Translations under genes and position numbers: made by a program
Assembly: GCA_003528115.1 (NCBI GenBank)
Contig: DOGZ01000017.1
Span: forward strand, 8,795 to 72,794
Length of the DNA stretch: 64,000 nucleotides
Reading direction: 5' to 3'
Source: Candidatus Omnitrophota bacterium
GTDB lineage: Bacteria > Omnitrophota > Gorgyraeia > Zapsychrales > Zapsychraceae
Shown: positions 3,051 to 46,455 of the stretch, piece by piece
How positions within the stretch are numbered: position 1 is the first letter of the stretch
How the letters are laid out: each line of letters opens with the position of its first letter
The notes under the pieces: generated by a model
Database searches by the model: none
What the model saw: the letters and a program-made list of their open reading frames with translations, nothing else
Told to the model about the DNA's origin: nothing

Positions 3051-5119
3051 AAAAACAAAAGGCTGATCAATAGGAAATAAAATAGAGCTAATAACACGTA
3101 ATTCATAAGATAAGCCCCAGAAGTGCCGAAATGAAAATAGACGACATTTTCTCCCGGCGGAATCCAGAGGCCTTTAAAAGCAATGTTGGCTCGTTCCACA
3201 GGGACAGGTTGCCTGTTAACAAAGGCCTGCCACCGGCTGTCAAAGGAGTCATTATAAACAAGAAATTTACGAGACGGGAAATTGGTTTTTACTTTTATTG
3301 AGTTCATATTGTAGGACAACAAACGGAATTCGGGGGCGTCTTTTTCAATAACCAAGGCTTCCTTAGGAACGTCCCGGGAATCCGCCCCATCTTCCCCGGA
3401 AGAAGAAACAAAGGCCACGTTTCTTTGTTCAGCGAAAGCTTGCTCGACTTCTTTAAAGCTCAAATTCTTATCGGAAATGTTTTCGGTGCGGTCATAAAGG
3501 ATAAATTTATGACTTAGATATTTTCCAAAAATTGTATAATCCAGCCGGCTGTTGGCCAAGTGGTACCACTTTGTCCCGAAATATATTTTTTGTGTGTGGT
3601 CAGGACTGTGGGTATAACTAAAATCCGTGAACGGCCGGTCATACGTGGATGGCCCCGCGTAGGACGGGGAATTGAGGCTGAGATGATAATAGACTTCTGT
3701 CGCGGGAAGGAAAACGAGCCCTAAGAGAAAGATCAGGGTTGAGATTTCTTTACTGATCAATCTTCCATTGAAGATGAGGATAAAGAAAATAAAACTGAAG
3801 CAAATGGTCAAAAAAGAGGTGAGAGACGCCGTCTTGGTGAAGATTGTAAGGAGAAAGCCAATGAAGTGAACGGCCAGGAGAAAAGCCATCGTTAAAATGT
3901 TTTCTTTTTTTGTGGTTGGACGATGAGTTAGGATTGAACGGAACAATTCCGTGACAAAGAGAATCAATAGAGGGAGAAGGATGAGCCAGAGAAAAAAGTG
4001 TGAATTTCTGAAATACTTAAAAAAGAAGACATGCGTGTATAAATAGGAATAAATAGGTAACTGAGGGGTGGTGATGAGAAAGACGAGGAGGCTCCAGATG
4101 AAAAACAGTAGAAGTTTTTTGTTAATTCTGCTCATCGCCCCGAGGCTGAATATCAGATAGGCAAAGAGGGGGATATATAAGACTTTAAAGTGCATGTCCG
4201 GGAGATTGGATAAAAGATAAGAAAAATATACCTCCTCACCGATGCTCCATTCGGTAATTTTATTTATATTGACCTCGAGGGCGTTTTGAGACGAGGAGGC
4301 GTCTGCTCTAAAGGGCAGCGTGAATTCGCCTCTGGATGATTCGTGAAAAAATGTAATGGAAGGCAGGGCGGATAAGAGAAGGGCCGCCAGGCAGAAGCCC
4401 GCGAAGATTTTGTTGTGGTTGAGAAAAGATAGATTCCTTCGGCAGATGGTTAAGAAATCCTGGAAGAAAATAATAATAAAACAAAAGACAAAAGATAAAA
4501 AGATAGTGGCGAAATAAAAGGGAATATACGTGGTCATGAGAAGCATGAAACAGAAAATCAGGCCTAGAAAAGAATGTTTTTGCGGGTTTCTGGAGAAATC
4601 CACCAGAAAAAAGAAAAACCAAATCATGGGGACGAATATGAGGTGGAGATAGGAGTCGAAGAGATTTGTCCCCAGAGAAGAGAACAGGAGAAGGAGGTAA
4701 GCCAAAAAAGCGGACTTTGTATCCCGAAAAATTAAGTGCGCCAGTTTATAGAAACCAAATATGCCCAGAAAGTAGTATGCGCCTAGAAAGGCAAGATAGG
4801 CCAGCGTGTAGTTGAGGCCCATCCCTTGAAGAATAAGAATAAAACCATAAAAAGGATTATAAGCGCCGATTCGGCGTAAAAAGAAATCGTTAGGCGCGCC
4901 TGATTCCCATGTCGGGTTCCATAAAGGAAAGACCCCGCGGCTCACATTATCTAAAAAGAATTTGATTTGTTCGTAGTAGGATACCGCGTCGTGAACGAGG
5001 GCTAATTTGGCGGAAAGAAAATCGCGGAACAAAAATACCCATAAAAGAAAAGAAAAAATAATGATCCAGTAAGGATTTTTAATATGAGGCAGGAAATGGG
5101 GATGTTTGGGCGGCATCAT
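3020..5119 (-). CDS. YfhO-like polytopic membrane protein (GT-C fold glycosyltransferase family)
   Basis: 699 aa with many TM helices. The N-terminal loop (DAVSYYEQIKFF...GVFPLWNP) is typical of the YfhO family, and there is a large C-terminal extracytoplasmic domain. Confidence 0.5.
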   Translation of the reverse strand: MMPPKHPHFLPHIKNPYWIIIFSFLLWVFLFRDFLSAKLALVHDAVSYYEQIKFFLDNVSRGVFPLWNPTWESGAPNDFFLRRIGAYNPFYGFILILQGMGLNYTLAYLAFLGAYYFLGIFGFYKLAHLIFRDTKSAFLAYLLLLFSSLGTNLFDSYLHLIFVPMIWFFFFLVDFSRNPQKHSFLGLIFCFMLLMTTYIPFYFATIFLSFVFCFIIIFFQDFLTICRRNLSFLNHNKIFAGFCLAALLLSALPSITFFHESSRGEFTLPFRADASSSQNALEVNINKITEWSIGEEVYFSYLLSNLPDMHFKVLYIPLFAYLIFSLGAMSRINKKLLLFFIWSLLVFLITTPQLPIYSYLYTHVFFFKYFRNSHFFLWLILLPLLILFVTELFRSILTHRPTTKKENILTMAFLLAVHFIGFLLTIFTKTASLTSFLTICFSFIFFILIFNGRLISKEISTLIFLLGLVFLPATEVYYHLSLNSPSYAGPSTYDRPFTDFSYTHSPDHTQKIYFGTKWYHLANSRLDYTIFGKYLSHKFILYDRTENISDKNLSFKEVEQAFAEQRNVAFVSSSGEDGADSRDVPKEALVIEKDAPEFRLLSYNMNSIKVKTNFPSRKFLVYNDSFDSRWQAFVNRQPVPVERANIAFKGLWIPPGENVVYFHFGTSGAYLMNYVLLALFYFLLISLLFLWITFSLRKS

Positions 5120-33847: not shown

Positions 33848-34705
33848 ATGAGCGGCCTTCTCCTTCAGTCTCCTGCCAAAGTCAATCTTTTCCTTAAGAT
33901 TCTTAATAAAAGAGCGGATGGGTACCACAATATCGTTACATTATTTGAACGCGTAGATCTCTGCGATGAGATATTTTTGGATTCTAACAAAATTGGCGAT
34001 ATTCGGATTTTCTGTAACCATCCCCATGTTCCTACCGGGCCTAAAAACCTTGCATACAAAGCCGTTAGAATGCTCCAAAAAGATTTCCGGATAACAGAAG
34101 GTGTTGATATCAGAATCAATAAACGAATCCCCGTGGCCGCGGGGTTAGCCGGGGGGTCAAGCAACGCGGCCACAACTCTATTGGGGTTAAACCGTTTATG
34201 GGGGCTACGTTTGGGATCGAAGAAGTTGTTGTTTTATGCCCGTCAAATTGGAAGCGATGTCCCATTCTTTTTATATAATTGTTCATGGGCTTTAGGTCAG
34301 GGAAGAGGGGATGTCATTAAAAAGATAAATATAAGGACAAAGTTATGGCATATTTTGGTTATTCCTCGAATTAAAATGTATTCTTGGAAAGTCTACGGCG
34401 GCTTGAAATTGAAGTTGACAAAAAAAGATGATGATGTTAATATCCTAATCCATCATTTAAGGAAAAATAATTTAGAAGAGGCTAGACGGCAATTAGTTAA
34501 TGATTTAGAGACTTCCATCATAGAGCTATGCCCGAGACTTGAGAAAATACGGGAAAAATTGAAGTTATTGAACGCCCAGAATGCTATGTTTTCTGGGAGT
34601 GGGCCGTGTGTGTTTGGGATGACTGATTCTGAAAAGGATGGCAAGACCATGGCCGTGATATTGAGGAAACGTTTTAATCAAGTATTTGTCGTTAGAACTC
34701 TTTGA
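33848..34705 (+). CDS. ispE: 4-diphosphocytidyl-2-C-methyl-D-erythritol kinase
   Basis: GHMP kinase motif PVAAGLAGGSSNAA and the N-terminal KVNLFLKI. Confidence 0.85.
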   Translation: MSGLLLQSPAKVNLFLKILNKRADGYHNIVTLFERVDLCDEIFLDSNKIGDIRIFCNHPHVPTGPKNLAYKAVRMLQKDFRITEGVDIRINKRIPVAAGLAGGSSNAATTLLGLNRLWGLRLGSKKLLFYARQIGSDVPFFLYNCSWALGQGRGDVIKKINIRTKLWHILVIPRIKMYSWKVYGGLKLKLTKKDDDVNILIHHLRKNNLEEARRQLVNDLETSIIELCPRLEKIREKLKLLNAQNAMFSGSGPCVFGMTDSEKDGKTMAVILRKRFNQVFVVRTL

Positions 34706-34901
34706 AATTCGTTTTAGAGGATGTGTGGCGGCAAGGGAAATGTTTTTTCCCTTATCGGAATAGGTATTGCGAAAGACTTAAACTCGTTACGAACTTCTTA
34801 AAAGAAATGTTTGGGGCAAGAGATTGACACTTCTAAAGGGATGATAGGCTGAGGAAGTGGCAGTTGAAAAGCGTACCGAAACAAAGGAAGGGGTTGAGGG
34901 G

Positions 34902-35306
34902 ATGGAGATTACAGAAATTCGCATATTTCCTAAAGAAGGACAAGACAAAAAGTTAAAAGCGTATACAACAGTGACATTTGATAATTCCTTTGTTGTTAGA
35001 AACATCAAAGTTATTCAAGGTTCGAGTGGGTTATTTATTGCTATGCCATCTCGAAAAATGAAGACTTCGTGTCCCAAGTGTCATTTTAAAAATGAGATCG
35101 GCAGCAGATTCTGTAATCACTGTGGAACTGCTATCCCATCAGATAATACCCAGACACATGAGGGGGATGATAAGGCAGAACATCGTGACATCGCGCACCC
35201 CATAACTCAGCAATTTCGCGAATATCTGCAAACAAATATCTTAGAGGCCTACAATAAAGAAACCGCTAAAACCATTTCTTCGAGTGGTTCTCCAGAACAA
35301 ACTTGA
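34902..35306 (+). CDS. spoVG: SpoVG family nucleic-acid-binding protein with inserted zinc-ribbon
   Basis: The core aligns to SpoVG (MEITEIRIF...FVVRNIKVIQGSSGLFIAMPS...HRDIAHPIT). About 37 aa containing CPKC-x12-CNHC are inserted in the loop. Confidence 0.75.
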   Translation: MEITEIRIFPKEGQDKKLKAYTTVTFDNSFVVRNIKVIQGSSGLFIAMPSRKMKTSCPKCHFKNEIGSRFCNHCGTAIPSDNTQTHEGDDKAEHRDIAHPITQQFREYLQTNILEAYNKETAKTISSSGSPEQT

Positions 35307-35427
35307 TCTAAAATTTTGTCGAAATTAGATAAAGAAGTCCGGATGTGGATTTCCAGAAAAGAGGCTATAGATAAAATGAATCAGGTGCCTCTTAAGATTT
35401 TTTTGTTGCTGAAATAGGATGTTCGAT

Positions 35428-35499
35428 TGCCCGGTGGTGTAATTGGTAACACACGAGAATTTGGATCTCGTTTTCCTGGTTCGAGCCCAGGCTGGGCAG
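35428..35499 (+). tRNA. tRNA-Gln (anticodon UUG)
   Basis: Manual fold: acceptor stem TGCCCGG/CTGGGCA with U1-A72 and G73; D-arm GTGT-AATTGGTA-ACAC; anticodon arm CGAGA-ATTTGGA-TCTCG; T-arm CCTGG-TTCGAGC-CCAGG. No CCA is encoded. Confidence 0.8.
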
Positions 35500-35606
35500 A
35501 TAAATTTGCCGGGTAAAACCCTCAGAATCTTTGTGAGAAGAACATAGATATATAAGGCTATCAATTTTGGTTCTGCTGTTAGGGATGTGACGAAGGGGTG
35601 CGTTTT

Positions 35607-45408: not shown

Positions 45409-46455
45409 TTGGAAATGCACAAAACGCTAGCTGAGATAGCATCTTTAGTTGATGGAGAATTTGTCGGGGATGGGAATTTAATTTTAAGAGGGCTGAGTGG
45501 GGTCAAGGAAGCTAAAGAGGGTGACCTTACTTTTGTTGTAAATTCCAAATTTTTGTCACTCTGCAAAATAACGAAGGCCTCCGCGATCATTATCCCCAGG
45601 GACATGGAAATCACGGGTAAACCCTTCATCCGAACCGATAATCCTTCCATTGCTTTTTCGAAGATCGTTGGCATTGTTTCGGAGTGTGAGATTCCTTTCC
45701 ATCCCCAAGGGATTCATAAAACAGCTGTTATAGGTCAAGATGTGATCCTTGGAGAGAATGTGGCGGTGGGACCTTTCACTGTGATCGAACAGGGCGTGAG
45801 GATTGGGGATAATACGATTATTTATAGTGGATGTTACGTCGGGCCAAAAACAATTATAGGTCAAAATTGTTTAATTTACCCTCAGGTCACTATTAGAGAT
45901 CGTACAAGTATAGGCAGCCGGGTTATTATTCACAGTGGTACTGTAATTGGGGCCGATGGTTTTGGATATGAACAGGTGAATGGGGTTCATCAAAAAATTC
46001 CGCAAATCGGAACCGTTCAAATAGAAGATGATGTTGAGATCGGGGTGAACGTTGCCATTGATCGGGCCCGTTTCGATAAAACAATCATTGGCAAAGGGAC
46101 AAAAATTGATAATCTGGTTCAGATTGGCCATAATGTTGTGATAGGCGAAAATTGTATTATTACGGCTCAGGTGGGGATATCCGGAAGCACGACGGTGGGA
46201 AATGGGGCTATCCTAGCTGGTCAGGTCGGCGTTGTGGGGCATATAAAAATTGGTGAAGGCGCGGTCGTCGCCTCAAGGGCGGTTGTTATGAAATCTGTTC
46301 CGCCGCAGTGCATGGTTTCAGGTTTTCCAGCCAGGCCGCATGCTCAGGCAAAAAGGGTTAATGCCTGTCTGCAGAGGTTGCCCTATTATGTGCGCACGAT
46401 TCATGAATTGATGAAACGGATTGAAGAATTAGAGAAAGATATTAGTAAAAGGTAA
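45409..46455 (+). CDS. lpxD: UDP-3-O-acylglucosamine N-acyltransferase
   Basis: LpxD N-domain followed by an LbH domain. Confidence 0.85.
   Translation: MEMHKTLAEIASLVDGEFVGDGNLILRGLSGVKEAKEGDLTFVVNSKFLSLCKITKASAIIIPRDMEITGKPFIRTDNPSIAFSKIVGIVSECEIPFHPQGIHKTAVIGQDVILGENVAVGPFTVIEQGVRIGDNTIIYSGCYVGPKTIIGQNCLIYPQVTIRDRTSIGSRVIIHSGTVIGADGFGYEQVNGVHQKIPQIGTVQIEDDVEIGVNVAIDRARFDKTIIGKGTKIDNLVQIGHNVVIGENCIITAQVGISGSTTVGNGAILAGQVGVVGHIKIGEGAVVASRAVVMKSVPPQCMVSGFPARPHAQAKRVNACLQRLPYYVRTIHELMKRIEELEKDISKR

Follow-up and report, generated by a model that had tools for sequence, protein, structure and literature searches.

The window, i.e., the whole 64-kb stretch of DNA analyzed here, carries a spoVG gene whose product holds a long insert in place of a short hairpin turn. 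It is near certain that the gene is real, that it encodes a SpoVG and that the protein has this interrupted architecture. The finding that the insert is a Cys4 ribbon located, in sequence, between two experimentally mapped nucleic-acid-binding determinants appears to be new. In Omnitrophota and Planctomycetota, the insert-bearing protein is the ordinary SpoVG, a lineage-typical form rather than an unusual one.

SpoVG is a widespread global regulator with an unclear mechanism. The canonical protein has been studied in Bacillus, Staphylococcus, Listeria and Borrelia; experiments so far were done on Firmicute or Borrelia proteins, none of which has the insert, and it is only for these SpoVGs that RNA and DNA binding and a homodimer are known. 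RNA is bound more tightly than DNA (PMC4959528, PMC11086051), and the dimer presents a continuous basic surface (bioRxiv 10.64898/2026.04.02.716078). A basic doublet, K50-R51 in S. aureus SpoVG and R53-R54 in the Borrelia protein, is essential for DNA binding, and a six-residue stretch where the helix begins, SDMRQE for S. aureus and QDFRKA for Borrelia, sets sequence specificity (Jutras et al., 2013; PMC3688583).

The spoVG gene and its insert

The spoVG ORF is uninterrupted, running from an ATG at 34902 to a TGA at 35304-35306. The gene and its immediate surroundings contain the following features:

33848..34705, + strand: ispE (GHMP kinase), the upstream neighbor of spoVG, matched by Pfam GHMP_kinases_N and _C
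34884..34893, + strand: aaggaagggg, a putative purine-rich, Shine-Dalgarno-like stretch upstream of the spoVG ATG, from reading of the sequence
34902..35306, + strand: the insert-bearing spoVG CDS, 134 aa plus stop, from the ORF, Pfam and the starts of homologs
35427..35500, + strand: tRNA-Gln(UUG), between spoVG and glmU, from ARAGORN and Rfam (RF00005, 55.4 bits)

Homologs start at MEITE, and the true start of spoVG is therefore likely 34902. In the public JGI annotation of the same sequence, the gene (P0001, 149 aa) begins 15 codons upstream, at a GTG at 34857 (34857-34901); this start is probably over-extended. The order of genes in the window is hisG-TPR-ispE-spoVG-tRNA-Gln-glmU-prs-L25(ctc)-pth-rpsF-ssb, which agrees with the ispE-spoVG-glmU-prs-ctc-pth context described in the original prediction. 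A search for a regulatory RNA, a promoter or a terminator around spoVG returned only the tRNA-Gln, which is the sole tRNA gene of the window, and consensus matches at chance level. The 64-kb window contains no second spoVG. An ORF of the LpxD-like hexapeptide-repeat type (45409-46455) contains a weak ribbon-like tblastn match at 45901-45960 (20 aa at 45% identity, E = 0.34), which was dismissed as chance.

The product had been described as SpoVG from end to end, and this description holds. The Pfam SpoVG profile, PF04026, matches residues 1-119 over its whole length (positions 1-82 of 82) with 105 bits (E = 2.4e-30; cutoff 29.6), and the PDB structures of SpoVG (2i9z, 2i9x and 2ia9) align on both sides of the insert, to residues 1-52 and 92-125 only. 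The NCBIfam equivalog model for the septation regulator SpoVG, NF009749, scores 97.6 bits, below its cutoff of 108, because the insert breaks the match in two; the window protein is therefore a member of the SpoVG family and not a canonical equivalog. Neither Pfam nor NCBIfam contains a model dedicated to insert-bearing SpoVG. The protein is divided as follows:

34902..35057, + strand: the N-terminal beta-sheet core, residues 1-52, ending in AMPSRK, aligned to PDB SpoVG residues 4-54
35058..35174, + strand: the lineage-specific insert, residues 53-91, a net gain of 36 aa over canonical SpoVG, from the gap between the PDB-aligned stretches
35070..35123, + strand: the Cys4 zinc-ribbon core, C57-x2-C60-x10-C71-x2-C74, from PF13240, cysteine conservation and the structural model
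35136..35177, + strand: the variable, probably disordered linker back to the SpoVG fold, residues 79-92, from column entropy and pLDDT
35178..35282, + strand: the EHRDIAHPIT motif (residues 93-102) and the C-terminal alpha-helix (103-127), from the PDB alignment (92-125) and the structural model

With canonical SpoVG of B. subtilis (2IA9) and S. epidermidis (2I9X, 2I9Z), the window protein shares the whole profile, the fold of a beta-sheet and a C-terminal helix, the AMPS-basic-doublet and RDIAHPI motifs and the ispE/glmU/prs/ctc/pth neighborhood. It differs at the hairpin: since the PDB alignments stop at residue 52 and resume at 92, residues 53-91, a 39-residue segment bearing the Cys4 ribbon, stand for the canonical turn of 3-4 residues. 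A zinc-ribbon-type Cys4 module at this site was part of the original prediction and is borne out by the alignment gap and by PF13240 (Zn_Ribbon_1), which matches residues 57-77 with a marginal 26.6 bits (cutoff 25). A second ribbon profile, PF12773 (DZR), reaches 23.9 bits, below its cutoff of 27, and precomputed Pfam annotation pairs PF13240 with PF04026 in many family members. The spacing, given earlier as CPKC-x12-CNHC, has to be corrected to CPKC-x10-CNHC, the cysteines being C57, C60, C71 and C74.

Both mapped determinants have counterparts at the borders of the insert. The basic doublet R51-K52, directly after AMPS, corresponds to K50-R51 of S. aureus SpoVG; HRDIAHPIT occupies residues 94-102, and the S. 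aureus specificity stretch SDMRQE (PMC3688583) has its aligned counterpart in TQQFRE (102-107). The insert starts right after the doublet and stops 10 residues short of TQQFRE. The AMPS-doublet and RDIAHPI motifs are invariant or nearly so across relatives.

Distribution and origin of the insert

Among 5.8 billion proteins searched, 5039 matched, and the best 120 were examined. These proteins are 121-151 aa long, show 70-84% identity and come from Candidatus Omnitrophota wherever the organism is named; the four-Cys motif sits at the equivalent place in 119 of the 120. HMMER, run exhaustively on 1.84 billion representatives of 50%-identity clusters, yielded 4532 clusters at E <= 1e-3, with the insert present in 149 of the best 150 representatives. 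The MPS-to-HRD distance in relatives is 42-55 residues, most often 46, as compared to 10 in canonical SpoVG. At least 594 genomes were matched in a GTDB scan with one genome per species, and all 80 loci retrieved from it encode the four-Cys insert; they belong to Phycisphaerae, Pirellulales, Planctomycetales, Gemmatales, Isosphaerales (including the cultured Tundrisphaera) and Omnitrophota. The one protein without a zinc ribbon among the best 150 cluster representatives is a metagenomic sequence of 388 aa (P0125) in which four canonical SpoVG domains follow one another in tandem.

In this survey of homologs, which had been proposed as a check, the named insert carriers fall into two phyla, Omnitrophota and Planctomycetota, with every major order of the latter represented. 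No carrier from a third phylum was found among the cluster representatives and the 80 loci drawn from the at least 594 genomes, and every name returned for 20 divergent cluster representatives points to Omnitrophota or is a generic one for SpoVG. Six metagenome-assembled genomes are probably mis-binned or mislabeled: four with the labels Actinomycetes, Bacteroidales and Alcaligenaceae (L018, L042, L043, L061) have ispE-spoVG(Zn) loci of the planctomycete type, and two labeled Planctomycetia/Planctomycetales (L055, L079) combine an Omnitrophota-type protein with hisG-TPR-ispE-spoVG-glmU-prs-L25 synteny.

The gene neighborhood is conserved to a different extent on the two sides of spoVG. In 71 of the 80 loci ispE lies immediately 5' of spoVG, and the exceptions are mostly contig ends; downstream, the glmU-prs-L25-pth block is retained only in the Omnitrophota-type loci of this set. 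Four Omnitrophota genomes (L046, L053, L075, L080) have both the insert and window-type synteny. One of them (L080) preserves nearly the full order of the window, from hisG through rpsF, and most of that order is found in L046 and in L079, which speaks for an Omnitrophota source of the window. The constancy of ispE and the presence of a single spoVG in the window uphold the view that this is the orthologous copy and not a stray paralog.

The same comparisons bear on a trivial explanation, raised with the original prediction, in which a sequencing frameshift or another assembly error, or a chance pattern of cysteines, produced the insert. This explanation has a next-to-nil probability. The reading frame is uninterrupted, the same architecture is found in 119/120, 149/150 and 80/80 relatives, and in an alignment of 360 distinct insert-bearing SpoVG sequences C57, C60, C71 and C74 are conserved at 100%, 100%, 99.7% and 100%, respectively. 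A frameshift artifact would not recur in hundreds of independent assemblies, and a cysteine pattern held across two phyla with about 49% core identity is far beyond chance; the comparative data refute both forms of this reading. Between Omnitrophota and Planctomycetota, the ribbon is 41% identical and the SpoVG core 49%, and the site and the modal length of the insert are the same. These data are most simply read as one insertion in a common ancestor, and they suggest that the insert arose a single time.

The insert itself has been in print for over a decade. Gupta, Bhandari & Naushad (2012; Front Microbiol 3:327, PMC3444138) described an insert of 36 aa (32-36 aa in their Figure A3) that lies in a conserved SpoVG region in all sequenced Planctomycetes. 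There it is presented as a Planctomycetes-specific signature indel, stated to be absent elsewhere, and used as a taxonomic marker. The Planctomycetota proteins analyzed here have exactly one insert, located at this site and of that size, and the correspondence with the published indel is one of size: MPS-to-HRD distances of 42-46 residues, as compared to the canonical 10, agree with the 32-36-aa range, and so does the net 36 aa of the window protein. Unlike the indel as characterized in 2012, the insert is also found in Omnitrophota and is not exclusive to Planctomycetes. The words "zinc" and "cysteine" do not occur in the paper (PMC3444138), and a search of the available literature found no paper linking SpoVG to a zinc ribbon, to zinc or to Omnitrophota/Omnitrophica, nor any experiment on an insert-bearing SpoVG.

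These results divide two earlier statements. The original prediction knew of no such variant of SpoVG: the insert had been published in 2012, while its ribbon nature and its occurrence in Omnitrophota appear new. The prediction also allowed that the insert could prove widespread and already catalogued as a known subfamily. Widespread it is; catalogued it is in part, as the 2012 marker and as a pair of Pfam domains, without a dedicated Pfam or NCBIfam model.

The Cys4 ribbon and its possible roles

Conservation within the insert is uneven. Across the 360 sequences, mean column entropy is 1.09 bits in the beta-sheet core, 1.71 in the ribbon, 3.09 in the linker (79-92), 0.75 in EHRDIAHPIT, 1.81 in helix 103-120 and 2.98 in the C-terminal tail. 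By these values, the constraint on the ribbon is about equal to that on helix 103-120, whose start holds the specificity stretch, and the linker varies freely. Beyond the cysteines, conservation in carriers reaches at least 90% at N64 and G75, and K63 and an aromatic residue before C71 are likewise conserved, though these are not ligand positions. The mean net charge of the ribbon is +3.2 in Omnitrophota and +3.5 in Planctomycetota; the linker in Omnitrophota is acidic, with a mean charge of -1.1.

A structure prediction, another of the checks suggested at the outset, gave a SpoVG core fold with two short hairpins in the insert, at moderate confidence. The AlphaFold2 model, built from a 65-sequence alignment, has a mean pLDDT of 72.8 and a pTM of 0.54; pLDDT is approximately 81-85 in the core, 74-81 in the ribbon and below 50 at residues 82-97. 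Core strands are modeled at 3-10, 18-26, 30-39 and 44-47, the ribbon hairpins with strands at 54-56 and 63-65, and the helix at 103-127, with block-mean pLDDT of 77 (residues 101-110), 90 (111-120) and 58 (121-130). The top Foldseek matches to the model are the SpoVG structures 2i9z, 2i9x and 2ia9 (probability 1.00, target-normalized TM 0.68-0.78).

What kind of ribbon this is can be judged from its matches. A ribbon-only profile finds the double zinc ribbons of DZANK1 as its best match (E = 5e-14, over four ribbons) and, more weakly, a putative regulatory protein (9sfa), the RNF213 N-terminus, eL40 and RPB12. Because of the DZANK1 match and the above-cutoff PF13240 score, the ribbon is assigned to the generic bacterial/eukaryotic PF13240/PF12773 class, with which it shares the CxxC-x10-CxxC spacing and the C-P-x-C-G...N....FC..CG pattern. 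It differs from that class in being a single ribbon nested in the hairpin of another domain, whereas the ribbons of the class are terminal or tandem. NZF/RanBP2-type fingers also superpose on the modeled insert (rmsd 0.7-1.0 A over 25-27 residues, with weak Foldseek E-values of 0.3-2). The C-x2-C-x3-N-x6-C-x2-C arrangement, the conserved Asn and the 'CNxCG' second knuckle resemble the RanBP2-type consensus, a likeness that is no more than a lead. Membership in the RanBP2-type family (PF00641) was rejected: the score is 11.4 bits against a cutoff of 27, and there is no conserved Trp, the position before the first Cys of the window ribbon being occupied by another residue. The likeness to RanBP2/NZF fingers (Nup153, Trabid NZF1 and the FUS ZnF bound to UGGUG) is thus one of the predicted backbone only.

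The reading favored here, held at close to even confidence, is that the ribbon is a zinc-stabilized basic module at the tip of the binding hairpin that adds contacts to RNA or DNA. The second nucleic-acid-binding or metal-sensing element of the original prediction is likewise plausible. A 36-residue module would have been inserted once into the SpoVG shared by Omnitrophota and Planctomycetota, at the tip of the beta-hairpin after the AMPS(R/K)(K/R) doublet. The Cys4 zinc ribbon, its net charge about +3, would take up the first ~26 residues of the module, and the last ~14 would be a variable, flexible linker leading on to the strand with HRDIAHPI and then to the C-terminal helix. The cysteines would presumably bind zinc in a structural capacity, and the ribbon would offer a positive extra surface to RNA or DNA, which may raise affinity or shift target preference. 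An additional nucleic-acid contact is the likeliest role because the ribbon is flanked in sequence by the two elements that bind nucleic acid in other SpoVGs, the doublet on one side and the beginning of the helix on the other. Several points speak against it. The acidic linker of the Omnitrophota proteins could oppose binding; the resemblance to the RNA-binding fingers of RanBP2 type is structural only, and the generic ribbon class has no defined function to carry over; and the AlphaFold2 model, moderate overall and unconfident at residues 82-97, does not fix how the ribbon is placed with respect to the binding pocket. The conservation would agree equally well with a part in structure, protein binding or sensing.

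Of these, a role in protein binding is somewhat unlikely: the ribbon would be a docking module that recruits SpoVG to the ribosome, RNA polymerase, an RNase or another regulator. The nearest analogs of the ribbon in structure and sequence include fingers that act chiefly through protein contacts or within large assemblies, e.g., NZF fingers that bind ubiquitin, Nup153/RanBP2 fingers with Ran, eL40 and RPB12; the ribbon projects on a flexible linker, and the long tails of planctomycete SpoVG, with their short conserved motifs, suggest a hub protein. However, the neighborhood consists of housekeeping genes only and indicates no partner, and the net charge of +3 and the site beside the mapped DNA-binding doublet favor nucleic acid.

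Cys4 ribbons in loops are often purely structural, as in the lid of adenylate kinase and in C+ ribosomal proteins. A ribbon that serves only as a staple, i.e., a zinc knuckle that stiffens hairpin or dimer but neither contacts a ligand nor regulates, would account for invariant positions that are chiefly the four cysteines, plus N64 and G75. Such a role is improbable, since conservation extends to non-ligand positions such as K63 and the aromatic one ahead of C71, both phyla retain the positive charge, and canonical SpoVG folds and dimerizes without a staple (PDB 2ia9).

The remaining alternative assigns a sensing role to the cysteines, in which oxidation or loss of zinc would unfold the ribbon and change SpoVG activity. 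Cys4 zinc sites are redox switches in other bacterial regulators, such as RsrA and Hsp33, and unfolding at this site would disturb the binding hairpin. Still, a switch responsive to redox or zinc availability is quite improbable: neither the sequence nor the housekeeping neighbors contain a pointer to stress sensing, the motif is identical across very different habitats, and many Omnitrophota are anaerobic.

A broader claim goes beyond the added nucleic-acid contact favored above. It holds that SpoVG of the two phyla owes to the ribbon, as a second element for nucleic-acid recognition (or one responsive to zinc/redox), a binding mode or target range unlike that of any SpoVG studied, and that the insert unites Omnitrophota and Planctomycetota within the PVC group. 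This claim is tentative and leans toward doubtful. If true, the shared insert would be a rare genomic change, and its status as a Planctomycetes-only marker would be overturned. The occurrence in Omnitrophota corrects a published phylum-specific marker and bears on relationships within the PVC group. As two phyla carry a ribbon between mapped determinants, SpoVG proteins with and without it form a natural "add-on" comparison, which could show how the hairpin and the helix engage RNA or DNA. Neither point is paradigm-changing: the feature is lineage-typical, is visible in automatic domain annotation and was published in 2012.

C-terminal tails of the planctomycete proteins

Planctomycete insert-bearing SpoVG proteins have long, disordered C-terminal tails rich in R, G, P, E and D, with a median protein length of 198 aa (74 loci) and a maximum of 471 aa; many cluster representatives reach 200-471 aa owing to such tails. 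Examples are the genes at 4001-4870 of locus L001 and 4001-4642 of locus L047 (within the set L001-L078) and proteins P0129-P0270. The tail-end motif F[GSDA]xG[ILVM] is present in 48 of the 74 loci, in 115 of 131 long representatives and in 0 of 120 Omnitrophota-like proteins, and a second tail motif, EYDxIIAxL, occurs in 77 of the 131 long representatives. These motifs look like short linear docking motifs. The Omnitrophota SpoVG differs from the planctomycete protein in having neither the long disordered tail nor the FGxGI end.
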